A stretch of 64,000 nt of DNA. Origin: Candidatus Bathyarchaeota archaeon. GTDB taxonomy: Archaea; Thermoproteota; Bathyarchaeia; TCS64. Shown one piece after another: positions 3,383-46,821 of the stretch. The position numbers and the translations under genes were made by a program. Each line of letters begins with the position of its first letter. Positions within the stretch are counted from its first letter, which is position 1. The stretch covers positions 41,930 through 105,929 of the forward strand of contig JADHWN010000001.1 in the NCBI GenBank assembly GCA_016783455.1. The letters run 5' to 3'. The notes beneath the pieces are model-generated. The model worked only from the letters and a program-made list of their open reading frames with translations, was not told the origin of the DNA and did not search any database.

Positions 3383-3472
3383 TTAGGTCCTCTCGTCGGG
3401 GGACATGTTCTTTGCGTAGACGGCGAGGGCCGTCAGTGATGAGGACAACGCGTGGAGGACGACGCTGTTCAT
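3383..3472 (-). pseudogene. 29-codon relic matching the C-terminus of the threonine-synthase-like PLP enzyme encoded at 6307-7266; a gene remnant.
   Basis: The minus-strand translation MNSVVLHALSSSLTALAVYAKNMSPDERT* parallels ...LVLPASSSSLAALADYAKNRSSGERT... at the C-terminus of the 6307-7266 product. Shared nucleotide motif: ttgcgtagacggcgagggc versus ttgcgtagtcggccagggcggcgaggg. Confidence 0.3.
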
Positions 3473-22127: not shown

Positions 22128-23708
22128 TTAGTAAAGGAGGCCTTCGTCCTTCTTCTCGGCCTCGGCCTTCTCCCGGGCCTCCCTGAGGAGCCCGTAGATG
22201 TCGGGGGTGCGCCCTCCGTGGCGGGTCTCCCTCATGGCGGTGCGGATCATGACCGGGACGGGGACGAAGGGCCCCACCAACACGGCCTCCCCCTGCTCCA
22301 GGGCGGGGAGGTCCCCAAGGAGGTCCTCGCTGAAGGACTCCGAGGCGGCCTGGATCGTCCTCTGGTCCTGGCTGTTCACGATGCGGAGGATGGCGAGGTT
22401 GCTGCAGTTCGCCAAGATGTCCGGGTCTAAGCGGCGGGGCCTCTGGCTGATGACCGTGAGGAAGACGCCGAACTTAGCGCCCTCGGCGGCGATCCTCGCC
22501 AGGATGTCCCTGCTGAACTTTCCGCCTCCCTCGTCGGGTGGAGACGCGAATCGGTGGGCCTCCTCGACGAAGACGAATATGGGTGGTCTTGCCCAGGGCT
22601 CCTTGCGGAACTTGGCGTTCCAGATGCGGCGGAGGAGCATGCCGACGACGACGTCCTGGACGTAGTCGGTCATGCCGCTGAGGAAGATGTCGGACATGTG
22701 CTGGGGCTGGAAGAACCTGCGGACGTCGACGTCGCCCTCGGTGAAGATACCGCGGCGTCCCAGGTCCTCGAGGCGCATGATGACCCGTGAGATGCGCTCC
22801 TTGCCCTCCGCCTTCTGGGCCTCCATCTCCGCCTCAAGGTTGTCGATGATGTCCTCCAGCGTGTACTTGGGATTCTCCGCCCTCGCCTTCCGCACGGCGC
22901 GGCGGAGGAGGATAGTCTGGAGGCTGCCGGTGATCCTGGCGAGGGCGAGGAGCTCGGGGAGGCTGCAGCCTGAGACGCTGAGGCGGAGGGGGACGACGTG
23001 GGGGGCCTCGTACGCCTCGGCGGACTCGGGGCGGTAGACCGTGACCTTGTCGTGGAACTCGTCGCTGAGACGGCCCTCCGGGTCCTGGGTCATGTTGGCG
23101 TAGTCGCCGTGGGCGTCGATGACGAGGACCGTGGCCCCCTGCCTCAGGAGCTCCTCGATGATTCGGCCGGCGAACCAGCTCTTGCCGTAGCGGGTCATGG
23201 CGAGGATGGCGGTGTGCCTGTGGAGCTCCCTGCCGCTGAGGGGGATCTTCACCGACTCCCTGTGGAGGAGGTGGCCCACGTCTAGGGGGAGGTCCCGCTC
23301 CTGTAGGGTGAATAGCTCCTTGAGGAGAGCGTCGGTGGCCCTCTTCACGGGGGTTCCGGGCATCGGGGGGGTGCGGGGTCTCCGGACGTCGCGCCTCCCG
23401 TGCTCCTCGTGGATGTAGCCCAGGATCTTGACCGAGGCGATCACCTGGAGCATCTCGTCTCCGAGGCCGATCTCCCTCTGCTTCCAGACCGCCCCGGGGG
23501 TGGTGCGCTGGTCGTAGAAGGGGTGGCGGCTGTAGAGGCTCTTCACCTGGCCCAGGACGTCCACCTTCCTAGCGGTGCCGTCCGGGAGCTGCTCCTCGAG
23601 CTCTATCTGGACGTACTCGTAGCTCCGGGGCTTGGCGTCGGGGCTGGCGATGTTGAACTCGAAGAAGTTGGGGTTCGCTTGGCCGATTATCACTCCGTAC
23701 TCAGTCAT
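22128..23708 (-). CDS. herA: HerA-family FtsK-like ATPase/helicase.
   Basis: Start at MTEYGVIIG, about 526 aa. HAS-barrel-like N-terminus. Walker A AILAMTRYGKSWF. DEAH-like Walker B PIFVFVEEAHRF. The ATG overlaps the nurA stop (ATGA). The track ORF extends spuriously upstream in the same frame. Confidence 0.75.
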   Translation of the reverse strand: MTEYGVIIGQANPNFFEFNIASPDAKPRSYEYVQIELEEQLPDGTARKVDVLGQVKSLYSRHPFYDQRTTPGAVWKQREIGLGDEMLQVIASVKILGYIHEEHGRRDVRRPRTPPMPGTPVKRATDALLKELFTLQERDLPLDVGHLLHRESVKIPLSGRELHRHTAILAMTRYGKSWFAGRIIEELLRQGATVLVIDAHGDYANMTQDPEGRLSDEFHDKVTVYRPESAEAYEAPHVVPLRLSVSGCSLPELLALARITGSLQTILLRRAVRKARAENPKYTLEDIIDNLEAEMEAQKAEGKERISRVIMRLEDLGRRGIFTEGDVDVRRFFQPQHMSDIFLSGMTDYVQDVVVGMLLRRIWNAKFRKEPWARPPIFVFVEEAHRFASPPDEGGGKFSRDILARIAAEGAKFGVFLTVISQRPRRLDPDILANCSNLAILRIVNSQDQRTIQAASESFSEDLLGDLPALEQGEAVLVGPFVPVPVMIRTAMRETRHGGRTPDIYGLLREAREKAEAEKKDEGLLY

Positions 23709-24997
23709 CAGTCTATCTCCCTCAGGGAACGTCGGGTGCCCCGTATGTCGAGTCCCGCCTCCTCGAGGCGTCGGACGATGAAGGGCTCGTACCTGCTCGT
23801 GTAGAGGTTCCTGTCGAAGCGGGCGAGGGTGTCCGTCTGCTTCAGGGGGAGGTTGTACTCGACGTCGTTGCAGTACCAGTGGAGGAGGTGGTTCAAGACC
23901 TTTTCGAGGGGCCCCGCCTCCCCCTCGTGGAACCTGTTCCCCGCCTGGTTGATCCAGGGCTCGTGGTGGCCGAGGCTGTGGGCGGCGAGGTCGACCCTGA
24001 AAGGGCGGGCGTCCGAAGTGGGCTTCCAGTAGGTGGTGGCTACCCCAGGGCACTGGAAGAAGGTGCTTATGGAGGTGATGATGGACTCTGCGGTCTCCGC
24101 TGGGAGAGTCCTCCGTATACGCGTGTAGAGGGCTGGGGCGTTCTCCCGCCCGTAGTAGATGGAGGGGGCGAGGAGCAGGGGCCGGGTGTACCCCTCGGCG
24201 GGGGCGCACACGTCGACGAGGTGGGTGTCGCAGAGGGGGCGGGCGTCGAGGAAGGGCTTCAGTGCCTCCCGGTCCGCTGCGTCCCAGGCCTCCATGCGGA
24301 TGCCGAGGTCGAGGGGGGTAGGCGCGTCCTTTAGGAGGGTGGCGGTCCTGCTCAGCCCGGCGTCACGTAGGGCCCTCCTGAGGAGGTGCATGTGGAGGTA
24401 GAAGACGGTGGAGTCCTTGGAGACGGCGGCGAGTGGGAAGCCGTTGTCGTACGCCAGCCGGCGGAGGTCGGCGAGGCTCGTGAAGAAGTCCCGGAGGAGC
24501 ACGGGGTGGTGGCGGTACTCGCGGATGGCGTAGGGGAACCGGGCGATGTAGAGGCTGCCGTCCAGGAGGACCAGGGGCCTCAAGCCCGCGTCGAGGGCCT
24601 TCCGGGCCGCCTGAGCTGCCGCGTCGTACTCGGCGATGATGCGGGCGTATCCCGGGATGAACCCCCTGTCCCGGTTGTCGTATGTGTCCTGGACGTTGAT
24701 CTTGACAGTCTTGGTGAGAGTAGGCTGCTGCCCGGGAGTGTGGGTGATGGCGAGGGCCCGGGCGACGGCGATGAATCCTCCGTAGGCGTACCGGGACTGC
24801 TGGACGCCCCCGTCGACGGAGATGAGGGCGTGAGGGCGGTCGTCGGTGTCGGCTTCGTGGGGCGTCCAGTGCTTCAGGAGGGTGTCTGAGAGGGCGGGGG
24901 GCGTCCCGGGCTCCTCCTGGTCGGCCTGGAGGTCCTTTGTGACTCGTTCCAGCTCGTCGTAGAACTCGTCGAAGAATAGGTCTCGTACTTGGGACAT
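23708..24997 (-). CDS. nurA: NurA-family 5'-3' nuclease.
   Basis: Start at MSQVRDLFFDEF, about 429 aa. The NurA catalytic block ALISVDGG is present. It sits immediately upstream of herA and is translationally coupled to it. Confidence 0.65.
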   Translation of the reverse strand: MSQVRDLFFDEFYDELERVTKDLQADQEEPGTPPALSDTLLKHWTPHEADTDDRPHALISVDGGVQQSRYAYGGFIAVARALAITHTPGQQPTLTKTVKINVQDTYDNRDRGFIPGYARIIAEYDAAAQAARKALDAGLRPLVLLDGSLYIARFPYAIREYRHHPVLLRDFFTSLADLRRLAYDNGFPLAAVSKDSTVFYLHMHLLRRALRDAGLSRTATLLKDAPTPLDLGIRMEAWDAADREALKPFLDARPLCDTHLVDVCAPAEGYTRPLLLAPSIYYGRENAPALYTRIRRTLPAETAESIITSISTFFQCPGVATTYWKPTSDARPFRVDLAAHSLGHHEPWINQAGNRFHEGEAGPLEKVLNHLLHWYCNDVEYNLPLKQTDTLARFDRNLYTSRYEPFIVRRLEEAGLDIRGTRRSLREID

Positions 24998-28282: not shown

Positions 28283-29260
28283 ATGACCATCGACCTATCC
28301 GGCGTCTTCGACGTGACCGAGATCTGGGCGGCCCGGAAGAGGATCTCGGGGATCGTCTACAGGACGCCGCTCGTCTACTCCAGCGGCCTCAGCGAGAGGA
28401 CGGGGAGCCAGGTCTACCTGAAGATGGAGTGCTGGCAGAGGTGCGGGTGCTTCAAGGTGAGGGGGGCCGTGAACCACGTCTCGTCCCTGACGCCCGAGGA
28501 GAGGGGGCGGGGGCTGGTCACCGCCTCCAGCGGGAACCACGCGCTGGCCGTGGCCTTCGCCTCGCAGCTGTTCGGGGATCATCCGACCAGGATCTACGTC
28601 CCGGAGGACGTCGACCCCGCTAAGGTGAAACGGATTCTGGCCTGGGGTCCGGACCTCGTGTACCACGGCAGGAGCTTCCAGGAGACCTTCGACGAGGCGC
28701 GGCGATACGCTAAGGAGAACGGGTCAGTTTTCGTTCACAGCCACGCGGATCCCAAGGTGATCGCTGGGCAGGGCACCATCGGCCTGGAGGTCATGGAGGA
28801 CCTACCCGACGCCGAGGCGATCATCGTCCCAATAGGTGGGGGAGGGCTGGTCTCGGGGATATCGTCGGCGGTGAAGACCGTCTCGGAGGAGGTCAAGGTC
28901 TACGGCGTGGAGCCGACGGCCGCCCCGGGGGCCTACAGGTCCCTGAGGGAGGGGGTGTGCCATGAGACTCTGGATGTGAGTGAGAGCATCGCCGACGGAT
29001 TGCTGGGGGGGTTCGGGAGGCTGCCCTTTGAGATCTGCAGGCGGACGGTGGACGACACGTTCCTAGTCGATGATGGGGAGATCGTGGAGGCCATGGCTGC
29101 GTTCCAGCAGGAGGAGCAGGTGATGGTGGAGCCCGCTTCGTCGGTGGGGCTCGCTGCCATGCTCTCCGGTAAGATCAGGTTGCAGGACAGGAAGGTCGTG
29201 CTGGTGGTCACGAGCAGAAACATCGATGCGTCAAGATACAACCAGCTCATTAAACTCTAA
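28283..29260 (+). CDS. Threonine/serine dehydratase (threonine ammonia-lyase-like, PLP fold-type II).
   Basis: Start at MTIDLSG. The PLP-lysine motif CFKVRGAVN (compare SFKIRGA) and the glycine loop IVPIGGGGLVSGI are both present. Confidence 0.8.
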   Translation: MTIDLSGVFDVTEIWAARKRISGIVYRTPLVYSSGLSERTGSQVYLKMECWQRCGCFKVRGAVNHVSSLTPEERGRGLVTASSGNHALAVAFASQLFGDHPTRIYVPEDVDPAKVKRILAWGPDLVYHGRSFQETFDEARRYAKENGSVFVHSHADPKVIAGQGTIGLEVMEDLPDAEAIIVPIGGGGLVSGISSAVKTVSEEVKVYGVEPTAAPGAYRSLREGVCHETLDVSESIADGLLGGFGRLPFEICRRTVDDTFLVDDGEIVEAMAAFQQEEQVMVEPASSVGLAAMLSGKIRLQDRKVVLVVTSRNIDASRYNQLIKL

Positions 29261-29303
29261 CATTAATATTTCAGTCACACCTAGAACCCCACAGGTGTAA
29301 CTC

Positions 29304-29554
29304 ATGAGCAAAGTTATAGAGTACACCAGGGACATCTTCGGAGACGAAGACGAGTACAGGTGCTGCTACCGCGGCTACCTCGGCAACAAGTACGCTTCCT
29401 CGTCCTCTCCAACAAACGCCTCCTCTTCCTCCACGAGAAGGGCATCTCATCCGACTTCGACAAGATAGTGGATGTCCCCTACGACGAGGTCGCCGACTGC
29501 AGCTGCGTCGACCGCAACCTCATCGCCATTAAAACCATAGAGAAGTTTCGTTAA
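29304..29554 (+). pseudogene. Frameshifted paralog of the small bacterial-PH-domain-like protein encoded at 32771-33082.
   Basis: Frame 1 reads MSKVIEYTRDIFGDEDEYR...GNKYA. It then switches by +1 near 29395 to ...FLVLSNKRLLFLHEKG...IVDVPYDEVAD, which is the 29360-29554 ORF. Together these recapitulate MSKVIEYTKGILGDEDQFK...ILCNQRLLFIHEKG...ILEIPYDRVQEY of the intact paralog. This is either a single-nucleotide indel or a sequencing error. Confidence 0.5.
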
Positions 29555-29624
29555 ATGACGAAAATTTCACTAATTAGCGAAAGTATTTATGAGTCGGATG
29601 TTAGTAAAGTAGCATGGACATCGA

Positions 29625-30260
29625 ATGGCTATGAAACTTACATCCAAGAAATCATACAGAGTCATAGAGCACCTGCTCAAGCAACCCGAGAGCAGCCAAC
29701 TGGGGCTCTCAAACGAGACAGGGGTAGCCCTGGGACACGTGAACAAGATAATCAACTACATGCACGACCTGAACATGGTCTCCAAAAAGTCCCGAAGCTA
29801 CATCCTAACGGACCCCCTCCGACTGCTGGAGAAGATCAGCTTCGAGCGCCCCCTCAAACGGCTGGAGACCACAACGTTCCGCCTTCCCACAACCTCAATC
29901 GTGGAGAGCGAGGAGATCTTGAACAATGCCTGTAATAAAAACAACGTCGACTACGCCCTGACATCCTTCAGCGGCCTAAGACGCTACTACGAGTACCACA
30001 TATCATACCCCTCCATCCACGCCTACGTATCAGACCCAGGGATCGAGACGAAGATAGAGCACGGCGAAGGCGCCATACCCGTCACCCTCCTCAAACCAGA
30101 CAGGCCCGAGATACTCGTCAACTCCCTTGAGATCGACGGACTACGCGCCTGCGACAGGATCCAGATCGTCGTCGACCTGTTCTCAAGCGGATACGGCAGG
30201 GACGCCGCCATGAAGTTCCTAGAGGTCATCCAGCATGGGACAGAGGAACATACTAGCTGA
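29625..30260 (+). CDS. Winged-HTH regulator, AbiEi-like putative antitoxin.
   Basis: 211 aa. N-terminal HTH (LGLSNETGVALGHVNKIINYMHDLNMV). It overlaps the downstream nucleotidyltransferase gene by 26 nt. Confidence 0.45.
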   Translation: MAMKLTSKKSYRVIEHLLKQPESSQLGLSNETGVALGHVNKIINYMHDLNMVSKKSRSYILTDPLRLLEKISFERPLKRLETTTFRLPTTSIVESEEILNNACNKNNVDYALTSFSGLRRYYEYHISYPSIHAYVSDPGIETKIEHGEGAIPVTLLKPDRPEILVNSLEIDGLRACDRIQIVVDLFSSGYGRDAAMKFLEVIQHGTEEHTS

Positions 30261-31029
30261 CCACTCCTACCGGGAGCTCCTCAGCCTACTCGACTGGTTC
30301 TACCTCCACGGACCCATCCCCATCATCATAGGCGGCTGGGCTGTCTTCCTCTACAACTCATATCTCGGATCAGCGGACATCGACCTCGTAGGCCCTAGCA
30401 TGGGCGGCCTCTTCAATAACACCCTTGAGGGCTTCGAGCGCAGCCAGGGCTACGAAGCGGTCACAACCGACAGGTTAGGCCTGCAGACGAGCTTCAGGAA
30501 GCCCGTGATAGAAAACGGGGAGATAGTGGGCCACGTCCAGATCGACGCGTGCACCTACGAGCAGGACACCGGGGGCTTCCACGAGGACCCCTCCATGAAG
30601 CTCCCGTACGCCCTGTGCGCCGAAGCCGACCTCCGCTCCCACGTAAAACTGGACAGCAAGAGAGAGGCCTACATCCCAAGGAAGACCCTGCTCCTCCTCT
30701 ACAAACTCAAAGCCCTCAGGGACAGAACCCACGACCTCAGGACAAAAGGCCCGATACTCGGTTCCGAGAGGAGGAACTGGCTACGCGACAAACGCATAAA
30801 AGACGGAGCAGATCTCATGGCACTGCTGGACCCCCAGCCGAGAACCTGCACCCTAGCAGAGGAACTGGACACAAACCTACTGACCAAGATAATCGAAAAC
30901 CATTCCCTCCAGTTCACCCTGGAAAGCCTAGAAGAACTGCCGAACATGGAGGAAGCACTCAGCCTGTACAGAAACGCAAGCCGAGAGCAAGTAGCAGATT
31001 GGGTAAAAGACACGGTAACACGTAGCTAG
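30235..31029 (+). CDS. AbiEii/DUF1814-like nucleotidyltransferase, putative toxin.
   Basis: 264 aa. IIIGGWAVFLYNSYLGSADIDLVGP matches the AbiEii KGGTAL...R-x-S-x-DID-h nucleotidyltransferase signature, a minimal-NTase G[GS]...D-h-D-h pattern. Confidence 0.5.
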   Translation: MGQRNILADHSYRELLSLLDWFYLHGPIPIIIGGWAVFLYNSYLGSADIDLVGPSMGGLFNNTLEGFERSQGYEAVTTDRLGLQTSFRKPVIENGEIVGHVQIDACTYEQDTGGFHEDPSMKLPYALCAEADLRSHVKLDSKREAYIPRKTLLLLYKLKALRDRTHDLRTKGPILGSERRNWLRDKRIKDGADLMALLDPQPRTCTLAEELDTNLLTKIIENHSLQFTLESLEELPNMEEALSLYRNASREQVADWVKDTVTRS

Positions 31030-31499
31030 ACAAAACACCATTCCAGACACTGAAAGCCTTTGGTACAACGACACCTACAAGGAAAATACAGGTGAAACAA
31101 ACAATCCCACAGTGAAAAATACGCCAAACGATAAAAGAAACCTGAAAACAGCCCCTCCCAATCCGATGCCAGGCAAAAACACGGTCCATTCCCAGAAAAA
31201 CTATCTGAGGGGGGAGGGGGGGGTCATGCATCCGCCTATGAAAAACGCCCCTGCAGACGAAAGGAACCCCGGAAAACCCCCGACACGACCCCGTTCATAC
31301 CAAAAGGGGTACCTATTCATACCAAAAACACGCTCAAAACCCCTCAACGGAACAGTGAAAACACCACACCCAACACAACAGACCTCGCACGAAAAAAACC
31401 CCACGGAACGCTTATCCCCTGCCAGCCACACGCGAAAAAAACGCTTATCATATGTCACCACTCACAACCCCCAAATACACCCGCAGCCACACTACAACC
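31030..31499. repeat. A/C-rich (+ strand) low-complexity noncoding tract 1, internally repetitive.
   Basis: Almost devoid of T and poor in G on the + strand. Internal direct repeats include ttcataccaaaa (twice), acagtgaaaa (twice) and acgcttatc (twice). It contains G6-A-G8-TCATGCATCC at 31209-31233. Confidence 0.6.
31209..31233 (+). repeat. Repeat motif GGGGGGAGGGGGGGG-TCATGCATCC, copy 1. A G-quadruplex-capable run followed by a palindromic ATGCAT core.
   Basis: The same motif recurs at 43324-43349 as G8-A-G7-TCATGCATCC. Confidence 0.7.
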
Positions 31500-32549
31500 A
31501 TGAGACTCAACACCCTACCCAGGGCAGGCCTAGCGGTCACCCCTACACCCCTCCAGCCCCTCCCCAACCTCACCGAGCACCTCGGAGGCCCCACCATCCT
31601 CGTCAAACGCGACGACCTCACAGGCCTCGCATTCGGAGGCAACAAGGCCCGCAAGCTCGACTACCTCATGGGAGACGCCCTCCAGAAGAAGGCTGACATC
31701 ATCGTCACGGGCGCCGGATTCCACAGCAATTGGTGCACCCAGACTGCCGCAGCCTGCTGCAAGCTCGGCCTCCCCCTCATCCTCGTCAAGAGCGGCCCCC
31801 AGGACGGATACGACCCCGACCAGTGGGACGGCAACCACCTCCTCCACCACCTCTACGGAGCAGACATCACCATCCTCAAGGAGGGCTCAGGCCAACGCCG
31901 CCAGGAGATCACAGACGAGCTCCGCGCACAGGGCCGCAACCCCTACCTCATGCCCGTCGGAGGCTCCACCCCCCTCGGCGCCGCAGGATACGTCCACTGC
32001 ATGCTCGAACTCCTCACCCAGGCCGTGGACCAGACCACAGAGATCACCCACCTCTACCACGCCACCGGCTCAGGGGGCACCCAGACCGGACTCGCCCTCG
32101 GCGCCAAGGCCCTCAACACAGGCATCAAGGTCGTCGGCGTCTCCACCGGCTTCGGCGACAGCGCAAGACGCATAGAGAACCTCCTCAGGCTCTCCCACGA
32201 GACCGCCGAGTTCCTGGAGATCGAGACACGTCTCACCGAGGCCGACATCAACGTCCTCGACCAGTACAGCGAGGGATACGGATACGCCACCGAGGCCAAG
32301 ACAGAGGCAATAAAACTCCTCGCAGAGAAGGAGGGCCTCCTCATCGACCCCGTCTACACCGCCACCGCCATGGCAGCCCTCATCGACGACGCCCGGACAG
32401 GAAAGCTCACCGAAGACGACACAGCCGTATTCCTCCACACAGGAGGCACAGCAGCCCTATTCCCATACCGCGACACCCTCAAAGCCCACACCCAGGGGAA
32501 ACCCCTCCCATGGAAGATCCCCCAGTGGAATCCAGACTACACCGGGTAG
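31500..32549 (+). CDS. ACC deaminase / D-cysteine desulfhydrase family PLP enzyme.
   Basis: Start at MRLNTLPR. ILVKRDDLTGLAFGGNKARKLDYLM holds the PLP-lysine in the G-G-N-K-x-R-K-L-E/D context. The glycine loop is HATGSGGTQTG. Codon third positions are almost exclusively A or C. Confidence 0.75.
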   Translation: MRLNTLPRAGLAVTPTPLQPLPNLTEHLGGPTILVKRDDLTGLAFGGNKARKLDYLMGDALQKKADIIVTGAGFHSNWCTQTAAACCKLGLPLILVKSGPQDGYDPDQWDGNHLLHHLYGADITILKEGSGQRRQEITDELRAQGRNPYLMPVGGSTPLGAAGYVHCMLELLTQAVDQTTEITHLYHATGSGGTQTGLALGAKALNTGIKVVGVSTGFGDSARRIENLLRLSHETAEFLEIETRLTEADINVLDQYSEGYGYATEAKTEAIKLLAEKEGLLIDPVYTATAMAALIDDARTGKLTEDDTAVFLHTGGTAALFPYRDTLKAHTQGKPLPWKIPQWNPDYTG

Positions 32550-32770
32550 AACCCACAAAGAAGACAGAACCCAAACCCGAGAACCCCAGAAACCTCCCTA
32601 ATAAATGATAAGAAGAGAGGGACAGGAGAGAAGTGGCCTCTGCAGGAGGACCCTGCCCCCTCCAACCGTAGAACACCCAAAACCCCCTTAAGAGCATGAT
32701 GGGCAACAAAACCTAACCAACCCCTCCAAAATTATAATAAACATAAAACCCAATATGTTCAGGTGCTTAA
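32550..32770. repeat. A/C-rich (+ strand) low-complexity noncoding tract 2.
   Basis: aacccacaaagaagacagaacccaaacccgagaaccccagaaacc... has the same skewed composition as tract 1. Confidence 0.5.
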
Positions 32771-33082
32771 TTGAGCAAGGTAATTGAGTACACGAAGGGG
32801 ATCCTGGGCGACGAAGACCAGTTCAAGACCAGCTTCAGGGGGACCCTCGGCAACAGCTTCGGCTACATCATCCTATGCAACCAACGCCTCCTCTTCATCC
32901 ACGAGAAGGGCACAGGAGGGTTCGACAAGATCCTCGAGATCCCGTACGACCGCGTACAGGAATACGGATTCCCTGAGCCCAACCGACTCAGCATCACCCA
33001 GAAAGAAGGTAACACGAACGAGATAGTGGTCGCTGGCTCCACCCTGTTCCTGAAGATGAGCTTAAAAGAGCTCATACCTTAA
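32771..33082 (+). CDS. Small bacterial-PH-domain-like (bPH/DUF1696-like) protein.
   Basis: 103 aa with a TTG start. GYIILCNQRLLFIHEKG...ILEIPYDRVQEY resembles the YokE-like bPH core. This is the intact paralog of the 29304-29554 pseudogene. Confidence 0.5.
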   Translation: MSKVIEYTKGILGDEDQFKTSFRGTLGNSFGYIILCNQRLLFIHEKGTGGFDKILEIPYDRVQEYGFPEPNRLSITQKEGNTNEIVVAGSTLFLKMSLKELIP

Positions 33083-33106
33083 AAATCACCTATTTTTCCC
33101 ATACCC

Positions 33107-33123
33107 TGAATAACCACCCAACC
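33107..33123 (+). repeat. 17-nt exact repeat TGAATAACCACCCAACC, copy 1. Copy 2 is at 43355-43371.
   Basis: An exact match between two A/C-rich intergenic tracts 10 kb apart. Confidence 0.6.
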
Positions 33124-33189
33124 AGGGCATACCCCTCCCCACACAAAGGACATAACATAAGACCTATGCCACCCACAACACGAGTGGAG

Positions 33190-33519
33190 GAGGTGCAGCG
33201 ACGGCCCCCCAGGGCTCAAGGGCTCACCCACGGACAGGGGCGCACGACCCCCCTCAGGCTCGGGACCCCGCGAGCGCCAAACGTCCAGGCTTAGGCCGCT
33301 CCCTCCCGGGCCTCACCGGTTCACCCGACTACAGCCCCCACGCCCCCCTACGAGGGCGCAGAGAACAACCGCCGACCCCGCGGGACAAGCCCTCGACGGA
33401 GAGCCGCACGTCTTACCCGCAGGCTTCACCCCATCACACCGAGGTTACTGACCCCTCCTATAGCCCGTTTGAAGGCAAGGGGAAGGGCTAGCTCCCGGTC
33501 CTACCCGCCGCTGCACCAA
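33190..33519 (-). ncRNA. Signal recognition particle RNA (archaeal 7S / SRP RNA) candidate.
   Basis: The minus-strand RNA contains CCGGUGAGGCCCGGGAGGGAGCGGCCUAAGCCUGG. This closely parallels the universally conserved SRP helix-8 region of E. coli 4.5S, CCAGGUCAGGUCCGGAAGGAAGCAGCCAAGGC, including a GNRA-type GGGA tetraloop. The 5' GGUGCAGCGGCGG pairs with the 3' CCGUCGCUGCACC to form the long terminal helix. Length is about 326 nt. The region is GC-rich and noncoding. Confidence 0.65.
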
Positions 33520-33553
33520 CCACAACGCAGCCCGACGATAAAACCGTTACGCA

Positions 33554-34417
33554 CTAGAGGATCGGCACCAGACCGAACTTAACAAGGCTCAGAAGCAGGT
33601 TAGAGACCATCAGCGCCAGGAAGCTGAACATAGTCATCCGCTCCAGAACCCTGCCCCACCCCGGCTTCGTCGCCAGATACTCCCTCACCATCTGCCCCCC
33701 ATCCAGCGGATAGATGGGTAGCATGTTCACCATCGCCAGGTTAATCGACAGAAAGTAAAGCCAGTTCAGGAACACACCCACCACCCGGGGCAGGCTTCCC
33801 CCCACCACGGAGAAGACACCCACCACCAGCAGCCCCGTCACCAGGTTCACCAGGGAACCGGACGCGAAGACCCGCAGCTTAGACATCAGCCCAGCCCTCC
33901 CCAGGGACTCCTCATCGGGCTCCACGGCCCCCCCGAAGGTCACCACCGCCACCAGCAGCGCCGCCGACCTCACCTCGATCCCCTCAACCGCGCACATCAC
34001 CCCGTGGCTCAGCTCATGGAGAAGGATCACCACCCCCGCCGCAGCCAGGAACCAGACCATGCTCTGAAACTGGATGGTCACCCCCGGGATCAGGGGCATC
34101 ACCGGAGACGCCTCGGCCGGCACGTAGAGGAACCTGTAAAGATTAAGGAACAGCATGTATGTCATGAACGCCACCTGACCGAAGAAGGAGGCCACACCCA
34201 CGTTCCCCACCACCCTCCAGAGCCCCGGACGCCAGCTCCCCACACGGATCAGCACCGAGTTCAACCGCGTCGACTTATACATCGCGTAGAGGGGATGAAG
34301 CTCAACCCCGAACCTCTCCAGCTTCAGGAACCTCGCCAACAAGTAGAAGACGAACCACCCCACAACTAGAAGACCTAGAGTAGCGTACGTCTCATACCAC
34401 ATGGCCAAACTTGACAC
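33554..34417 (-). CDS. Site-2 protease (M50 family) intramembrane metalloprotease.
   Basis: 287 aa, polytopic. HExxH appears in VILLHELSHGVMCA. The LDG motif appears in NMLPIYPLDGGQM. Confidence 0.75.
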   Translation of the reverse strand: MSSLAMWYETYATLGLLVVGWFVFYLLARFLKLERFGVELHPLYAMYKSTRLNSVLIRVGSWRPGLWRVVGNVGVASFFGQVAFMTYMLFLNLYRFLYVPAEASPVMPLIPGVTIQFQSMVWFLAAAGVVILLHELSHGVMCAVEGIEVRSAALLVAVVTFGGAVEPDEESLGRAGLMSKLRVFASGSLVNLVTGLLVVGVFSVVGGSLPRVVGVFLNWLYFLSINLAMVNMLPIYPLDGGQMVREYLATKPGWGRVLERMTMFSFLALMVSNLLLSLVKFGLVPIL

Positions 34418-34474
34418 CAGCGAGCTTTACTAATAAGCGAAACCCCCCTTTAAATACCGTTTGAGGAGGGAGCG

Positions 34475-35158
34475 ATGACAGACAACATCGAGGTCGAGTA
34501 CACCCAGGAACACTGGGAACTCCTCAGCAGGCTCAGGGACGAGGCCAAGACTCTCACCCGCCCCCTCGCGGAGGCTCACATCGAGGCCCTCGTCTACGGC
34601 AGCATCGCCCGCGGAGACGTCCACACCGGAAGCGACATCGACGTATTCATCCCCAGCCCACCCGCCCCCACCATCCTCGAAACCCTCATCAACCGCACAG
34701 GCATCCAGACCGCCAACAGGGAGATCATTCAGGCCACACCCACGTACGCCGCCAAGGGCTACATCCATGCAGCCGAAAACAGGAGCTACTCCTTCCCCCT
34801 CGTCCAGCTTCGAGCCCACGAACGGGAGTTCTACGACTTCGCGGGGTCCCTCACCCCCAAACAGCTACAGGATGGAACACGGGTCCCAGGAGTCGACAAG
34901 CACCTAAAGCTAATAGAGCCCACGGAACGAGGGCACACCGAGACCCCCATCCAGGGCAGGGAGGGGGTCGTCGCAAAGACCCTGGGCGTAGGCGTCACCA
35001 TCGTCCTAGACAGGGTCCGAACCCTCCAGCGCAGGGAGAGGATAGGCAGGACCGGGGTCTACATAAAACGCCCCCTCGCCCCCGACGAGACGTTCGGGGA
35101 TGTCTACCAGCAGCTGGCACGGACAAGGCCCGCTCTGAGACGCAGAATGAGAATGTAA
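34475..35158 (+). CDS. Pol-beta-superfamily nucleotidyltransferase-domain protein.
   Basis: LVYGSIARGDVHTGSDIDVFIPS matches the GS-x9-13-D-h-D nucleotidyltransferase motif. The C-terminal roughly 120 aa is uncharacterised. Confidence 0.6.
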   Translation: MTDNIEVEYTQEHWELLSRLRDEAKTLTRPLAEAHIEALVYGSIARGDVHTGSDIDVFIPSPPAPTILETLINRTGIQTANREIIQATPTYAAKGYIHAAENRSYSFPLVQLRAHEREFYDFAGSLTPKQLQDGTRVPGVDKHLKLIEPTERGHTETPIQGREGVVAKTLGVGVTIVLDRVRTLQRRERIGRTGVYIKRPLAPDETFGDVYQQLARTRPALRRRMRM

Positions 35159-41685: not shown

Positions 41686-43263
41686 TTGGCTGAGACGGGG
41701 GGAGTAAAGTCCAATAGAAAGATAATCATCGTCGCAGTCGTAATCATCGTTTCCTCAATTGGGCTGTACCTATGGTACAACTGGGGTAGTGCAGTCAAGT
41801 ATGAGGTGTACGACAGGTTTGGGTTCTCCTTTGACTACCCCAAGGGGATGGAGTTTTCAGAGACTGGTTTTGGTGACTGGAGCCTCGCTTCAGTGAATTC
41901 GGGCGTTGTTCAAGGGATGTTAATGGGGGAAAGCCCAGAGTTGATTGGCGTCATCTGGTTCCACAATGAGTCTGCGCCGGTTTTTGAAGATTTTCTCGAT
42001 AGGGCCTTCACGGAGCTGGGTGAGGGGACCGAGGTCGATGAGAGGAATGAGTTGGTAACTTCAACTAAGGATGGCTACGATATGCTGACGCAGACGTTCA
42101 CACTATACATCGGAGACGACAAGACGATCGGCAAGGTGGGGACCTGGTACGACTCCGGGGCTCAAAGGTCCTACATGGTTTTCCACATCAGGGCCTCGAC
42201 GTTACCAGAGAAGAGGATGGAGACGGAATTCAACAAGCTTCTGGGATCTTTCGAAAGCTCCTACGAGGCTCTGTTGAAGATAACTCTGGAATCCTACTGG
42301 CCGACAGATGAATGGCGGACAGCGGTTCCAGAGGATGTAGGTATCTACTCAGGGCCTCTAGACGACATGCTTGAGGAGATCAGTAGAAGAGGCATCGGCG
42401 TAGATAGCGTCACCGTGGTAAGGGACGGATACGTCGTTCTCGACGAGTACTTCTCACCCTACGAAGGAGAGCCGCATATAATCTACTCGTGCACTAAGAG
42501 CGTGGTCTCGACCCTCATCGGCATCGCCATCGAGGAGGGGTACATTGAAGACCTCGACGTGAGGATGCTTGACCTCTTCCCGGACAGGACGGCGGGCAGC
42601 ATGAGCGCATGGAAGGAGGAGATGACCCTCAGGGACCTCCTCACCATGACGGCGGGCTTCAATGCCCGTGACTCATACCTCTACGAGTGGGAGGGACTGT
42701 ACACCATGCATGACAGCACGGACGCCCTCCAGTACGTCCTGGACCTCCCTGTTATCGAGGAGCCGGGAACCCGGTTCGAGTACACCAACGGCGTCTCCCA
42801 CCTCCTATCGTGCATCATCACCGAGAAGACAGGTATGAGCGCCCTGGAGTACGGCAGGGAACGCCTGTTCGAGCCCCTGGGCATCCACGATGTGGAATGG
42901 CACAACGACTCCATAGGGAGGAACTGGGGCTACAGCCGGATCTACATCACCCCCCACGACATGGCGAAGCTCGGCTACCTCTTCCTCAACAAGGGTCAAT
43001 GGGATGGAACCCAGATCGTGCCAGGGGAGTGGGTTGAGGAGGCCACCACCAAGCACGTGGACGCGACGATCATGGACGGGTACGGCTACCAGTGGTGGGT
43101 CAGCGGAGAGGGATACTACTCAGCGGTGGGCCACAAGGGGCAGTTCATCCACGTCGTCCCAGACCTCGACCTCGTGGCGGTCTTCACCAGCCGAAATGAA
43201 GTGGACTTCGATAGAATACTATCTCTACTGGAGACCTACGTCATACCCGCTGTCGTCCCCTAA
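41686..43263 (+). CDS. Serine-hydrolase beta-lactamase/transpeptidase-like family protein with an N-terminal TM anchor and an extra N-terminal domain.
   Basis: 525 aa. SxxK active site IIYSCTKSVVSTLIG. A Y-x-N-like motif in FEYTNGVSHLL. An HKG/KTG-like motif in AVGHKGQ. Confidence 0.75.
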   Translation: MAETGGVKSNRKIIIVAVVIIVSSIGLYLWYNWGSAVKYEVYDRFGFSFDYPKGMEFSETGFGDWSLASVNSGVVQGMLMGESPELIGVIWFHNESAPVFEDFLDRAFTELGEGTEVDERNELVTSTKDGYDMLTQTFTLYIGDDKTIGKVGTWYDSGAQRSYMVFHIRASTLPEKRMETEFNKLLGSFESSYEALLKITLESYWPTDEWRTAVPEDVGIYSGPLDDMLEEISRRGIGVDSVTVVRDGYVVLDEYFSPYEGEPHIIYSCTKSVVSTLIGIAIEEGYIEDLDVRMLDLFPDRTAGSMSAWKEEMTLRDLLTMTAGFNARDSYLYEWEGLYTMHDSTDALQYVLDLPVIEEPGTRFEYTNGVSHLLSCIITEKTGMSALEYGRERLFEPLGIHDVEWHNDSIGRNWGYSRIYITPHDMAKLGYLFLNKGQWDGTQIVPGEWVEEATTKHVDATIMDGYGYQWWVSGEGYYSAVGHKGQFIHVVPDLDLVAVFTSRNEVDFDRILSLLETYVIPAVVP

Positions 43264-43323
43264 CCGCAGGTCCGAGAATCACAGTGGCATACAGAAACAC
43301 ACGTGTACGTGAAAGGGGGGGAG

Positions 43324-43349
43324 GGGGGGTCATGCATCCAAGCGTGAAT
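43324..43349 (+). repeat. Repeat motif G8-A-G7-TCATGCATCC, copy 2.
   Basis: A direct repeat of the 31209-31233 motif in the same orientation, 12.1 kb away. Confidence 0.7.
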
Positions 43350-43354
43350 AACCA

Positions 43355-43371
43355 CCCAACCGAGAAAAGGA
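43355..43371 (+). repeat. 17-nt exact repeat TGAATAACCACCCAACC, copy 2.
   Basis: Identical to 33107-33123. Confidence 0.6.
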
Positions 43372-43745
43372 CGCTGAAAACGACTCCAGACGAGTCAGAT
43401 TCAGCATAAAAACGTGATGATAAGGCCTGAATACAGGGTAAAACCAGGTGGGCGGACGCCCCTGTCCCTCTGGGCAAACCCACGGCCTCACAGATAGGAC
43501 AACGCCCCCCTCAGCCGAGCTCTCTCATCCCAGAGGATTCCGACGCCCGCCCTGCCCACCTGTGCCATGTCTGGGTAACCCCGAATCACAGGCAGCCCTC
43601 CCCGAGGTCCGTCTGCATGGTGCGTCGCCTGGCGGGCACATAAACAGGAACAGGCAGCCACACTTAACCTTTACAGATGGCGTAGGCAACACAACGGGCG
43701 ACAGACGGGAACCCTCAGGGAGGCAACTACACGGAGATGGAGGCC

Positions 43746-43976
43746 TCACCGCAACCTCAATTCGCCCAGGAGCCCCCGCTTATACAGGATGTAACCCACC
43801 ACAGCGACCACAAGGATCACCATCATCGGCAGGACGACCTCAGAGAACACAGCTGGATCAGCCAGATCCCTCCCGGCAACCGCTGAGATGACGAAGACTA
43901 CTGCGACCGCAACATAGAACAGCTTCTCACGATTCTCCAAGGGCAACACTCGACTACCTAAGGAGCAGAAGCCCAC
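43746..43976 (-). CDS. Possible small two-TM membrane protein; weak call.
   Basis: 76 aa ORF with hydrophobic spans FYVAVAVVFVISAVAG and MMVILVVAVVGYILY. There is no homology signal, and the ORF lies in skewed DNA. Confidence 0.25.
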   Translation of the reverse strand: MGFCSLGSRVLPLENREKLFYVAVAVVFVISAVAGRDLADPAVFSEVVLPMMVILVVAVVGYILYKRGLLGELRLR

Positions 43977-44156
43977 CTAAAACACTTATTTCACTGCCAG
44001 ATGCAGCCTACTACTGATAATAAAATACGTAAATCAGAAGCCCCGGAGACCATTAACTTCGACCTATACCTAAAACCATTCATATAGTGGATTTTCGCGC
44101 AAAGACAGCGCATACCGAGCGTCAAGAAGGGCATTAATCCCCCACATATCAATGAA

Positions 44157-44166
44157 TTTTAAATAT
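44157..44166 (+). promoter_or_regulatory. Archaeal TATA box (TTTTAAATAT) upstream of the M14 peptidase gene.
   Basis: A canonical TTTAAATA core 15-20 nt upstream of the first ATG. Spacing suggests a leaderless transcript, possibly initiating at the second in-frame ATG at 44187. Confidence 0.4.
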
Positions 44167-44180
44167 TTCATCAACAATGT

Positions 44181-46718
44181 ATGTCCATGCCATCTGAAAT
44201 AAAATCGCCCGAGGAATTTTTCGGGCACAAGATGGGCGCAGACCGGAAACTGGTCCGCTGGGAGAAAATAGTCGAATACTTCTGGCACCTGGACAACTCA
44301 CCGTGCGTAAAGGTAACCGACCTGGGCAAGTCCACCGAGGGCAACCCATTCCTCCTCGCGGTCATCTCGTCCCCCGAGAACATCAAGAACCTAAACAAGA
44401 TACGGGATATGAGCTACAACGTAGCCCATCCCCAAGGGCTGAGCAATAGACAGCTCGACAGGATATACAAGGACGGGAAGACCGTGGTCTCAATGACCAT
44501 GAGCATCCACGCCTCCGAGGTCGGCGGCACACAGATGTCCCCCGAGCTCTGCTACGAGGTCGCCACGAGCCCCGAGCACGAGGAGATCCGGCAGAACACC
44601 GTGCTCCTGGCATTCCCCAGCTTCAATCCCGACGGCCAGATAATGGTCACCGACTGGTACAACGAGCATCTGGACACCGAGTACGAGGGAACGGGGACAC
44701 CGTTCCTCTACCACAAGTACGTGGGCCACGACAACAACAGGGACGCCATCCACCTCACCCAGGTGGAGTCCCAGATGGTCTCCAAGGTCATGTACGGTGA
44801 GTGGTACCCCCAGGCATACATCGACCACCACCACATGGGAGGCACAGGCGCCCGATTCTACATACCGCCGTTCGCCAACCCCGTAGACCCCAACGTCGAC
44901 CCCCTCATCTGGACGGAGCAGCAGCTCTACGGCGCCATGATGGCCACCATGCTGGAGGGCGCCGGCAAGACGGGCATCGAATCCGCAGCTACGTATCCGG
45001 GCGAGTTCATGCCCACATTCAACTACATCCCATGCTGGCACAACATCTGCGGGATGCTCACCGAGTCGGCATCTGCAAGGATAGCCACCCCCAGCTACGT
45101 CCACTACCACCAGTTGAGGCCGAGCAGGCGCGGCCGCCCAGAGTACAGGACCCAGATGGGCTTCCCCCACCCCTGGAAGGGGGGCTGGTGGAGGCTTAGG
45201 GACATCGTGGAGCAGCAGAAGATCTCATCCCTAGCCTGCCTGAAGGTCACCTCGAGCAACAGGGAGATGATCCTCAGGAACATGTACAAGAAGGCGAGTA
45301 GGGGCATAGAGAAGGGCAAGACCGAGGCGCCCTACGCATTCATCTTCAAGCCTGAGCAGCACGACGAGCTCAGCACGTACAAGCTCATGAAGACCCTCAT
45401 GGACATGGACATCAGGGTGAGCCGCAGCAAGCGTGAGTTCAAGGCCGAGGGAGTGACGTACCCCAGGGGCACGTACGCCGTCTTCGCCGCCCAGCCGATC
45501 AGGCCCTACATCATGTCCCTCCTCAGGAGGACGTTCTACCACGCAGGACCCTTCAGCTACGACAGCAACGGCAACCCCATCTCCCCCTACGACCTCTGCA
45601 CCTACAATATCGCCGAGTTCATGGGCATCGACCTCCACGAGGTGAAGGGCCCTTTCGAGGGAGAGTTCGAGGAGCTCCCGTCGGTCAGGTACCCCAGGGG
45701 CTCCGTCGAGGGCAGCCCCAAGGGATACATCCTCGACTGCAGGTACAACGACAGCTTCGCCGCCGTCAGCAGGCTGCTAAGGAGGGACACCGATGTCCAT
45801 AGGACCACCGAGCCGATCGAGGTAAACGGTGAGACCATCGGAAAAGGCGCATTCTACATCCCCGCAGCCGACGGCATAGAGGATGCTATAACCAGGCTCT
45901 CCAAGCAGCTCCATCTGACATTCCTACCAGCGCCCTCTGAAAACTTCAAGCATGAGCCCGTCAAGATGCTGAGGGTGGGCATGTACTACAGGTACAGGGG
46001 GGGTAACATGGACGAGGGCTGGACACGATGGCTCCTCGAAAAGTACAGGTTCAGGTACAAGAGGCTCCTGGACGCCGACGTCAAGAGGGGTAGGCTAGTC
46101 AACAAGTACGATGTCATCATCCTCCCGAGCGACAGCAAGGAGATGATCACAGGTGAAGGGATCGAGGAGTACTACAAGAAACGCTTCGGGTCTGGACGGT
46201 CGCCACCCAAATACCCCAAAGAGTACGAGAGCGGCATCGGCAAGGAGGGCGTCGAAAAGCTGAAGGAGTTCGTTGAAGAGGGCGGGACCCTGGTGGCCCT
46301 CGGAGCCGCCTCCGCATTCGCCATCGAGGCCCTGGAGCTGCCTGTCAAGAACGTGCTGCAGGACCTTAAATCCAAGGACTTCCTCTGCCCGGGCTCATCG
46401 CTCCACGTCGACGTAAACAGGGAGAACTCGCTGACGGACGGCGTAAAGGACGACCTGCTGATAATATTCAGGAACAACCCCGCGTTTGAAGTGGTGCCCA
46501 GCGCCAAGAACGAGGAGATGCAGGTAGTCCTCTCCTATCCTGATAAGAGGATCATGGAGAGCGGCTGGCTCATCGGGGAGGAGTACCTCAGTAGGAAGGC
46601 GGCCCTCATCGACGCCAAGAAGGGGAAGGGCAGGGCGGTCCTGTTCGGCTTCTCGCCCCAGTTCAGGGCGCAGACCGACGCCACGTTCAAGCTCTTCTTC
46701 AACTGCCTCATCGGCTGA
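44181..46718 (+). CDS. Large M14-family zinc carboxypeptidase with a C-terminal class-I-glutamine-amidotransferase-like/DJ-1-like domain.
   Basis: 845 aa. Zinc motif HxxE in SIHASEVGG, then PSFNPDGQ (NPDG). A downstream His/Glu sits in the M14 framework. The C-terminal AVLFGFSPQFRAQTDATFKLFFNCL resembles the end of an LD-carboxypeptidase or GATase-like fold. Confidence 0.7.
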   Translation: MSMPSEIKSPEEFFGHKMGADRKLVRWEKIVEYFWHLDNSPCVKVTDLGKSTEGNPFLLAVISSPENIKNLNKIRDMSYNVAHPQGLSNRQLDRIYKDGKTVVSMTMSIHASEVGGTQMSPELCYEVATSPEHEEIRQNTVLLAFPSFNPDGQIMVTDWYNEHLDTEYEGTGTPFLYHKYVGHDNNRDAIHLTQVESQMVSKVMYGEWYPQAYIDHHHMGGTGARFYIPPFANPVDPNVDPLIWTEQQLYGAMMATMLEGAGKTGIESAATYPGEFMPTFNYIPCWHNICGMLTESASARIATPSYVHYHQLRPSRRGRPEYRTQMGFPHPWKGGWWRLRDIVEQQKISSLACLKVTSSNREMILRNMYKKASRGIEKGKTEAPYAFIFKPEQHDELSTYKLMKTLMDMDIRVSRSKREFKAEGVTYPRGTYAVFAAQPIRPYIMSLLRRTFYHAGPFSYDSNGNPISPYDLCTYNIAEFMGIDLHEVKGPFEGEFEELPSVRYPRGSVEGSPKGYILDCRYNDSFAAVSRLLRRDTDVHRTTEPIEVNGETIGKGAFYIPAADGIEDAITRLSKQLHLTFLPAPSENFKHEPVKMLRVGMYYRYRGGNMDEGWTRWLLEKYRFRYKRLLDADVKRGRLVNKYDVIILPSDSKEMITGEGIEEYYKKRFGSGRSPPKYPKEYESGIGKEGVEKLKEFVEEGGTLVALGAASAFAIEALELPVKNVLQDLKSKDFLCPGSSLHVDVNRENSLTDGVKDDLLIIFRNNPAFEVVPSAKNEEMQVVLSYPDKRIMESGWLIGEEYLSRKAALIDAKKGKGRAVLFGFSPQFRAQTDATFKLFFNCLIG

Positions 46719-46821
46719 CCCCAACCTTTCTATATATTTTTTCTTAACAGTCAATACTAGTTTATAGAATCGAAGGGATTTTATATTCAAGCAATGTAGC
46801 TAAAGAGAATCGTGATCAAAG

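Follow-up and report, generated by a model that had tools for sequence, protein, structure and literature searches.

The sequence analyzed here, called the window, is a 64,000-nucleotide (nt) stretch of contig JADHWN010000001.1 (positions 41,930 to 105,929; assembly GCA_016783455.1) from a Candidatus Bathyarchaeota archaeon. Between positions 29625 and 31029 of the window lie two overlapping genes, here named A and B. Gene A encodes a winged helix-turn-helix (wHTH) protein whose C-terminal domain resembles that of AbiEi_2, and gene B encodes a nucleotidyltransferase (NTase) of the DUF1814 superfamily that retains the full catalytic set. The two genes and the putative ribosome-binding sequence between them are as follows.

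29625 to 30260, + strand: gene A, 211 amino acids (aa); an N-terminal wHTH at residues ~8 to 61 and an AbiEi_2-like C-terminal domain at residues ~64 to 204; predicted antitoxin and autorepressor.
30222 to 30226, + strand: Shine-Dalgarno-like GAGGT, inside A and 8 nt 5′ of the B ATG.
30235 to 31029, + strand: gene B, 264 aa; NTase of the Pol-beta fold, DUF1814 (AbiEii/MenT) superfamily; predicted toxin.

A first-pass annotation, made from the sequence alone, had described open reading frames (ORFs) of 211 and 264 aa overlapping by 26 nt, and the ORF listing places them exactly so, with the overlap at 30235 to 30260. Homologs of A begin at MKLTS, which corresponds to position 29631 in the window. 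The two genes overlap by 14 to 26 nt or abut in homologous pairs, and the GAGGT sequence suggests that translation of B may be coupled to that of A. Searches of a 5.8-billion-protein database identified 121 homolog clusters for A and 158 for B, and an exhaustive profile search identified a wider B family of 323 clusters at 50% identity. All named homologs of A and B were listed as hypothetical proteins from Bathyarchaeota or Bathyarchaeia. Given the many homolog clusters and the confident AlphaFold2 (AF2) models (predicted local distance difference test scores of 93.3 for B and 92.6 for A), A and B are real genes rather than chance ORFs, the latter reading being excluded by distribution and conservation.

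In the AF2 model of B, a helical region follows an alpha/beta NTase core of the Pol-beta type. Foldseek searches against PDB identified 5uvd, the "NTase-like" antigen Pb27 of P. brasiliensis, as the top match (E value, 1.6e−4), and ranks 2 to 5 were held by MenT1 of M. tuberculosis (8an5, 8an4, and 8rr5; E values, 1.7e−3 to 1.7e−2; probability, 0.99 to 1.00). Further matches were limited to the palm cores of Pol mu, beta, and lambda. A 2026 preprint on AbiEii grouped Pb27 (5UVD), ANT(2″)-Ia, and JHP933 with AbiEii and MenT1-4 in a single DUF1814 superfamily, and because Pb27 and MenT1 are both classed there, the best structural neighbors of B all fall within this superfamily. When a profile of 103 diverse B relatives was used to search the PDB sequences, the single match was again MenT1, deposited as an "AbiEii/AbiGii toxin family protein." With an E value of 0.15 this match was not significant alone, and it comprised three collinear segments (GGWAV..DID, LLyKLkA, and KDxaDilaL). 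The narrow-family profile of B gave no match to PDB sequences.

Motifs were assigned following Dy et al. 2014, with conservation scored over 103 members of the B superfamily. The AbiEii motifs as defined in PMC3985639 are hG[G/S] (motif I), DhD (motif II), KLxAaxxR (motif III), and +DxxD (motif IV), and the corresponding positions in B are listed below.

30328 to 30384, + strand: motifs I and II, I32-G33-G34 ... S46-A-D48-I-D50 (hGG x13 DhD).
30544 to 30546, + strand: D104, the likely third catalytic carboxylate, within QIDAC on a beta-strand of the model; invariant in the narrow B family and conserved in at least 90% of the 103 relatives.
30703 to 30726, + strand: motif III (KLxAxxxR), K157-L-K-A160-L-R-D-R164; K157 is invariant, and A160 and R164 are each conserved in at least 90%.
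30799 to 30813, + strand: motif IV (+DxxD), K189-D190-G-A-D193; aligned to KDLAD of Pfam-positive AbiEii proteins and to QDRSD of MenT1.

Motifs I and II fall within the segment IIIGGWAVFLYNSYLGSADIDLVGP (B residues 30 to 54). Nine residues were invariant in all 103 sequences, namely, G34, W35, S46, D48, D50, K157, K189, D190, and D193. S46 lies two residues before the DxD, which is the auto-phosphorylation position of MenT1 (T39), MenT3 (S78), and AbiEii (T65). Motif III aligned with MKIRAFPDR of Pfam-positive AbiEii proteins, its "aromatic" position being occupied by Leu in B, and motifs III and IV lie farther apart in B than they do in either AbiEii or MenT1 (17 gap columns in the alignment with haloarchaeal AbiEii).

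A link between B and annotated AbiEii proteins was obtained through more distant relatives. The Pfam AbiEii model (PF08843; gathering score, 22.5 bits) weakly matched 15 of 103 distant B relatives (best, 3.1e−5), fewer being matched by NTP_transf_5, DUF2204, or DUF6036, and PADLOC matches within the same set were mostly to AbiEii models (up to 9 of 103; best, 6e−5). One of the homologous loci (L004; related loci and contigs are referred to by such numbers) holds a second, divergent pair, the NTase of which has full-length homologs on haloarchaeal plasmids annotated as "AbiEii/AbiGii toxin family protein." These haloarchaeal proteins pass the Pfam AbiEii threshold with 28.2, 26.7, and 22.7 bits. 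Comparison with hhalign aligned the B superfamily profile to them over 170 columns (97.7%; E value, 1.4e−12), spanning B residues 3 to 200 and motifs I to IV, and the narrow-family profile of B aligned at 94.0%. A homolog search seeded with a 47-aa fragment of MenT1 returned only fragments of 52 to 83 aa, two of which carried PF08843, and tblastn of B against 72,556 plasmids returned no match. No Pfam or NCBIfam match to the CCA-adding or PolyA_pol families was identified for B or its 103 relatives. With Pb27 and MenT1 as nearest structures and a profile match to Pfam-positive AbiEii proteins, B does not group with a housekeeping family such as a CCA-adding enzyme fragment, the outcome that the first-pass annotation had considered fatal to its reading; a housekeeping-NTase reading of B was rejected on distribution and conservation.

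The wHTH of protein A is a family-wide feature, HTH_24 being found in 38 and TrmB in 35 of 58 members. Residues 8 to 61 of the AF2 model have an H-H-H-beta-beta topology, and Foldseek matches of A included IclR, MarR, and Sso10a wHTH proteins. The family profile of A aligned by hhalign with a protein scoring 35.6 bits on AbiEi_2 (PF09952) over 194 columns that span the wHTH and the whole C-terminal domain (97.3%; E value, 2.3e−11), which bears out the AbiEi-type C-terminal domain first proposed for it. The same profile also aligned with the proteins encoded upstream of annotated AbiEii genes in haloarchaea (97.1%; E value, 6.5e−11). The C-terminal half of A also weakly matched the NTase folds 5kqj and 4ok0 in Foldseek, and a similar NTase-fold likeness has been reported for AbiEi itself. 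In searches of PDB sequences, a diverse A profile matched generic wHTH regulators only, with neither AbiEi nor Rv2827c among them, and the matches of the narrow-family A profile were all spurious ones to designed helical repeat proteins.

Loci from Methanomicrobia, ANME-1, and some Thermoplasmatota carried a longer A-like stop-to-stop ORF of ~330 codons (L033-L054, L056-L058, L060, L066, L068-L069, L072, L074-L078, L082, and L085). Judged from the stop-to-stop span, this suggests an N-terminal extension of ~120 to 130 aa. Weak matches to nSTAND_NTPase4, NucS_C, and PDDEXK_10 were found among these sequences, which may represent a three-domain variant of the antitoxin.

The region upstream of A contains two adjacent palindromes followed by a TATA-like sequence.

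29546 to 29563, no strand: palindrome P1, TTTCGTTAAATGACGAAA, 18 bp; putative operator, kept in L003, L090, and L089.
29565 to 29582, no strand: palindrome P2, TTTCACTAATTAGCGAAA, 18 bp, 1 bp from P1; putative operator.
29584 to 29590, + strand: TATA-like TATTTAT, putative archaeal promoter, directly after P2 and ~35 nt before the A start.

Neither P1 nor P2 was significant alone. Across relatives, one or two palindromes were found at the equivalent place adjoining TTTATAT or TTAAATA, with half-sites that varied by subfamily (TTCGGT/ACCGAA, ATCCCAT/ATGGGAT, GTTCAC/GTGAAC, and GTTTAC/GTAAAC). A palindrome score of ≥8 was reached by 54% of 37 non-redundant loci, whereas the proportion was 2.3% among shuffled sequences and 13% among upstream regions taken as controls from the same contigs. 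AbiEi and Rv2827c each bind to pairs of inverted repeats within the promoters from which they are expressed, and P1 and P2 next to a TATA sequence form the signature expected of an autoregulating wHTH protein. The conserved palindromes agree with the autorepressor role that the first-pass annotation had assigned to A, and binding of A to these putative operators is predicted.

Comparison with relatives allowed the boundaries of the unit to be placed, and the cassette was found to be present or absent among close relatives.

29543 to 31029, + strand: portable cassette comprising operators, promoter, A, and B, delimited by blastn similarity to three relatives with unrelated flanks.
29252 to 31338, no strand: 2.09-kb segment absent from L092 (empty site), comprising the bPH pseudogene, the cassette, and an A/C-rich spacer.

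Similarity by blastn to L003 (79%), L090 (77%), and L089 (73%) started at 29542 to 29546, at the edge of P1, and ended at 31003 to 31027, near the B stop. As it runs from the first base of P1 to the stop codon of B, the conserved unit is a 1.49-kb cassette. The flanks varied in every lineage examined, even at 70 to 80% protein identity, and included xanthine dehydrogenase with NUDIX, ArgRS with MFS, an AbiEi_2/RHH cluster, HMG-CoA reductase with AFOR, and SDH with MFS. Metagenome relatives of the window locus were collected using the upstream PALP gene as an anchor. The cassette was carried by L128, an independent metagenome contig that is 100% identical (A, 100%; B, 99%), and by L094 (92%). 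In L092, ~91% nucleotide identity to the window extends up to 29251 and resumes at 31339, with ~170 bp lying between instead. This empty site bears out the proposal that the pair lies on accessory DNA. In L091, which is 94% identical, the corresponding spot between the PALP genes (5470 to 6964) holds, instead of the cassette, an opposite-strand ORF of 411 aa and a 53-nt bPH remnant. Insertions at this spot are hypervariable. The cassette was not found to be flanked by long repeats, either direct or inverted.

The frameshifted gene reported next to the pair was also recovered. It is a 3′-truncated copy (29304 to 29554) of an intact bPH_3 (bacterial PH domain) gene at 32771 to 33082, with the frameshift located between 29388 and 29394. 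The two copies are 74 to 86% identical at the nucleotide level and bracket the region, and the repeat spacing along the gene shifts from 3467 to 3468 and then to 3465 nt. The stop codon of the truncated copy falls in P1, the left edge of the cassette. Intact bPH_3 copies were absent from L091 and L092. On the other side of the cassette, the 420-bp intergenic region (31030 to 31451) is strongly A+C rich on the + strand, with a G-rich run, GGGGGGAGGGGGGGG, at 31208 to 31222; only its last ~110 bp (from 31339) are common to L092, and it gave no Rfam match.

To establish how widely B occurs, its narrow-family profile was used to scan 185,579 genomes, one per species. Only 84 B-like loci were identified, with some genomes carrying two copies. 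Most were in Bathyarchaeia, and the other archaeal loci were from Nitrososphaerales, Micrarchaeota, Methanothrix, Methanoregula, Methanocella, ANME-1, Thermoplasmatota, Baldrarchaeota, and Hydrothermarchaeota; a single bacterial locus was found, in a member of the Dehalococcoidia. Of the 80 loci retained, 76 had an A-like ORF as the immediate upstream neighbor in the same orientation, and two of the four exceptions were cut off by contig ends. In addition, one 502-aa protein (P0271) joined the two, the A profile matching residues 3 to 193 (98.9%) and the B profile residues 213 to 449 (E value, 3e−34). P0271 could be a genuine fusion or an artefact of sequencing or gene calling. Together, the 76 loci and P0271 confirm that the pair is conserved as neighbors elsewhere, the lack of which the first-pass annotation had named as a refutation. 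The 149 nearest neighbors of homologous pairs fell into 133 families, with no conserved context; recurrent families were Phage_integrase (5), RHH_8 (3), and GmrSD_N, PIN, AAA_21, and canonical AbiEii (2 each). A viral fold search of BFVD returned generic NTase folds only (E values of ≥2e−3).

The A or B gene was split into two ORFs in 6 of the 80 loci (L021, L022, L028, L079, L084, and L085), which could reflect pseudogenization or errors in the assembly of metagenome-assembled genomes. In L004 (6006 to 10406; also in L005), a small toxin-antitoxin (TA) cluster surrounds one homologous pair and includes an orphan Pfam AbiEi_2 gene and an RHH gene. The opposite strand of the L004 cluster carries the second, divergent AbiE-like pair mentioned above, with scores of 20.9 bits on AbiEi_2 (cutoff, 21) and 17.4 bits on AbiEii (cutoff, 22.5).

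Within the window, the pair lies between two PALP enzyme genes, and nearby genes encode a HerA-like helicase, an M14 peptidase, a TPR protein, an ArsR protein, an M50 protease, and a Toprim protein. The GC content of A is 0.542 (z = −2.0, third lowest among 51 ORFs) and that of B is 0.570 (z = −1.15), with GC content at third codon positions within one standard deviation for both. The compositionally aberrant island described in the first-pass annotation is thus borne out only mildly, and the anomaly is weak. The HerA-type helicase central domain (DUF87; E value, 1.5e−34) is in an upstream protein of 692 aa (22128 to 24209, − strand), and a separate, unrelated NTase-domain protein of 227 aa (NTP_transf_2; E value, 1.2e−7) is encoded 3.4 kb downstream (34475 to 35158, + strand). 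An archaeal signal recognition particle (SRP) RNA at 33198 to 33511 on the − strand (RF01857; 108.6 bits) is the sole Rfam family in the window, and no tRNA genes were found in the 64 kb. A strand skew was observed at 30001 to 35000 and also at 43001 to 47000 (AT skew, +0.28 to +0.43; GC skew, −0.13 to −0.29; 1-kb windows). It reaches well past the cassette and is therefore no property of the cassette.

From these features, the locus appears to be a self-contained, horizontally acquired two-gene cassette of the TA type, distantly homologous to AbiE and MenAT, a reading to which a probability of roughly 70% can be given and in which function is predicted by homology. Under this model, free B would catalyze NTP-dependent nucleotide addition to an essential RNA, for which the tRNA 3′ CCA end is the most likely candidate by homology with MenT1, MenT3, and AbiEii, and its activity would arrest both translation and cell growth. 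The C-terminal domain of A would bind B across the active site and neutralize it, probably through induced auto-phosphorylation of the invariant S46 (type VII logic), through occlusion of the active site, or both. The wHTH of A would bind P1 and P2 at the TATA/BRE region, repressing the operon. If A were lost or titrated, whether through infection by a virus, stress, or cassette loss, B would be released, with abortive infection, stabilization of the cassette, or both as the possible result.

A number of results weigh against this interpretation. In searches of Pfam, PADLOC, and NCBIfam at E values of ≤10, no AbiEii match was found for B and no AbiEi match for A. The same was true of the close families, as Pfam scans recovered AbiEii in 0 of 63 B-family members scanned one by one and AbiEi_* in 0 of 58 A-family members, and the AbiEi_2 model weakly recognized 1 of 50 diverse A-like partners. 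The hidden Markov model search proposed in the first-pass annotation therefore came back empty for A, B, and their close families, and for this reason the pair is an AbiE relative rather than a member by curated thresholds. The first-pass reading of an AbiE-like TA pair on accessory DNA nevertheless stands, on remote homology in profiles, fold, and motifs together with the architecture. The bridge from B to AbiEii also runs through a peripheral branch that barely exceeds the Pfam cutoff (22.7 to 28.2 versus 22.5 bits). TM-scores of B against Pb27 and MenT1 were modest (0.30 to 0.50), and these relationships are consequently remote. MenT3, MenT4, and JHP933 were not in the top 50 Foldseek matches of B, and AbiEi (6Y8Q) was not in the top 50 of A. 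With respect to the conserved AbiEii motifs II to IV, which the first-pass annotation had expected, DxD, KLxAxxxR, and +DxxD are present, but motifs I and II are separated by 13 residues, compared with 15 in DUF1814, and the DUF1814-specific Arg of motif II (R63 in AbiEii and R37 in MenT1) is replaced in B by L44, which is flanked by the invariant residues Y43 and G45. Among the ten flanking genes scanned, no integrase, transposase, or obvious defense gene was found, the neighbors being housekeeping genes, and no relatives were present among 2.9 million IMG/VR viral contigs. It has also been reported that AbiE of S. agalactiae gave no phage protection in E. coli. A further comparison, hhalign of the B profiles with a single canonical-looking AbiEii (L017, 1766 to 2707), gave no signal. 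However, the profile of the haloarchaeal AbiEii proteins likewise gave no signal with the L017 protein, which is itself without a PDB sequence match, and because a Pfam-positive AbiEii profile fails there too, this comparison was not counted as negative evidence.

Of the alternatives, the one that survives best is that B is a regulated, non-toxic NTase acting on a small molecule or antibiotic, as does ANT(2″)-Ia, or on another cellular target, and that A is simply a wHTH transcription factor dedicated to it, the C-terminal domain of which binds a ligand or an enzyme, without TA logic. The DUF1814 superfamily holds the non-toxins ANT(2″)-Ia, Pb27, and JHP933, which counts against a toxin, and among the 103 distant B relatives the ANT(2″) family model (Aminoglyc_resit) was matched as often as AbiEii, by 15 of 103 each. 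The missing motif II Arg, the metabolic setting between two PALP enzymes, and the failure of any curated defense model to match B point the same way. This is nevertheless judged unlikely, as A is homologous over its full length to antitoxins of the AbiEi_2 type and to the proteins paired with annotated AbiEii, a genuine toxin, MenT1, is among the best solved-structure matches of B, and the auto-phosphorylation position is always occupied by Ser. Moreover, an overlapping bicistron with its own palindromes in a 1.49-kb mobile unit is typical of TA and defense modules rather than metabolic enzymes, as are its presence/absence polymorphism, its occurrence in more than one copy in some genomes, and its integrase and TA neighbors.

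Alternatively, the cassette may be AbiE-like in origin and since decayed or domesticated, leaving a remnant in which B is catalytically competent but non-toxic or A acts as a regulator only. The adjoining frameshifted bPH_3 pseudogene and the split A or B genes at some homologous loci would fit such decay. Both ORFs in the window are intact, however, with none of the invariant catalytic residues and neither operator missing, and an identical copy occurs in the independent contig L128, making a remnant very improbable. Least credible of all, and given hardly any weight, is a vertically inherited housekeeping role in Bathyarchaeia RNA processing (an NTase for tRNA 3′-end repair or CCA-related, with its regulator), for although the pair occurs at 45 to 98% identity on many metagenome contigs from Bathyarchaeia and the window places it among housekeeping genes near the SRP RNA, it is confined to 84 loci in 185,579 species genomes, patchy over unrelated archaeal phyla and one bacterium, with flanks that vary by lineage, a relative with ~91% identical flanks that lacks it, split genes in 6 of 80 loci, and no CCA-adding or poly(A) polymerase family match.

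An AbiE-like pair in archaea extends a known kind of system and is unsurprising to a specialist. It is doubtful, on the other hand, that the 323 clusters constitute an archaea-specific, uncurated branch of DUF1814 NTases that works unlike bacterial AbiE and MenAT. If so, possible differences are another substrate or nucleotide specificity, tied to the absent motif II Arg and an extra helical insert; an antitoxin C-terminal domain that is a degenerate NTase fold from the toxin lineage; and a minimal 1.49-kb promoter-plus-two-gene cassette that moves into intergenic hot spots without an associated recombinase.

The whole archaeal branch of AbiE-like pairs escapes every curated model, and consequently TA and defense censuses of Bathyarchaeia, methanogens, and Thermoplasmatota under-count such pairs. 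The alignments, motif map, operator sites, and cassette boundaries described here are a basis for detection profiles, and the locus is useful for annotating archaeal TA and defense repertoires. It also offers a test of whether type VII auto-phosphorylation extends to archaea, and the empty-site polymorphism is a clean natural case of TA cassette gain without visible mobile-element machinery.

In terms of abundance, AbiE has been reported to rank fourth among prokaryotic anti-phage systems. MenT1, MenT3, and AbiEii extend tRNA 3′ CCA ends and thereby block translation, recent work has shown that toxins of the AbiEii/MenT family are silenced by auto-phosphorylation induced by the antitoxin, and AbiEii is now reported to be a pyrimidine-specific tRNA NTase that is neutralized by antitoxin-induced auto-phosphorylation, which makes AbiE a type VII system. 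The "type IV" and "GTP-specific" labels of the first-pass annotation are therefore outdated. The pair in the window resembles AbiE of L. lactis and S. agalactiae in being a bicistron of overlapping genes, in which an upstream protein of ~200 aa with wHTH and antitoxicity domains is followed by a Pol-beta-fold NTase with motif I, DxD, KLxAxxxR, and +DxxD, with T65 of AbiEii corresponding to S46 of B. Both also have paired inverted repeats at the promoter and are carried on accessory DNA. They differ in that A relates to AbiEi_2 (PF09952)-type proteins rather than to COG5340 AbiEi, B has an extra C-terminal helical region, and the putative promoter is of the archaeal TATA type with 18-bp palindromes 1 bp apart, whereas the AbiE repeats are of 23 bp and 3 bp apart.

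MenT1, of the MenAT1 system (Rv0078B/Rv0078A), is the closest experimentally characterized toxin among the solved-structure matches of B and has a compact NTase core. Its T39-x-D41-x-D43 corresponds to S46-x-D48-x-D50 of B, K137 to K157, and D149/D152 to D190/D193. In contrast, MenT1 is 196 aa long versus 264 aa for B, with a TM-score of only 0.33 to 0.50, and its partner MenA1 is a 7.4-kDa antitoxin of single-helix type without a wHTH, MenAT1 being without transcriptional autoregulation. As a two-domain wHTH protein with putative operators, A follows a logic closer to that of MenA3, MenA4, and AbiEi than to that of MenA1.

The AbiEii/AbiGii pairs of haloarchaeal plasmids (e.g., those of the NTases WP_255152670.1, WP_222609488.1, and WP_006183547.1) have upstream hypothetical proteins of 203 to 204 aa and equal the pair described here in gene sizes, order, and overlap. 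Their NTases and B have the signatures GGWAV...Y.GS.DID, K..A...R, and KD..DL in common. The haloarchaeal proteins differ by an insertion of ~10 residues between motif I and the DxD and by having no tblastn similarity to B, and they are a family apart from the B family, which lies under every curated threshold. Finally, the non-toxins Pb27 (5UVD), ANT(2″)-Ia (5KQJ), and JHP933 (4OK0) have the fold seen in B but stand alone, without an AbiEi-like partner, whereas B is strictly coupled to an AbiEi_2-like gene.

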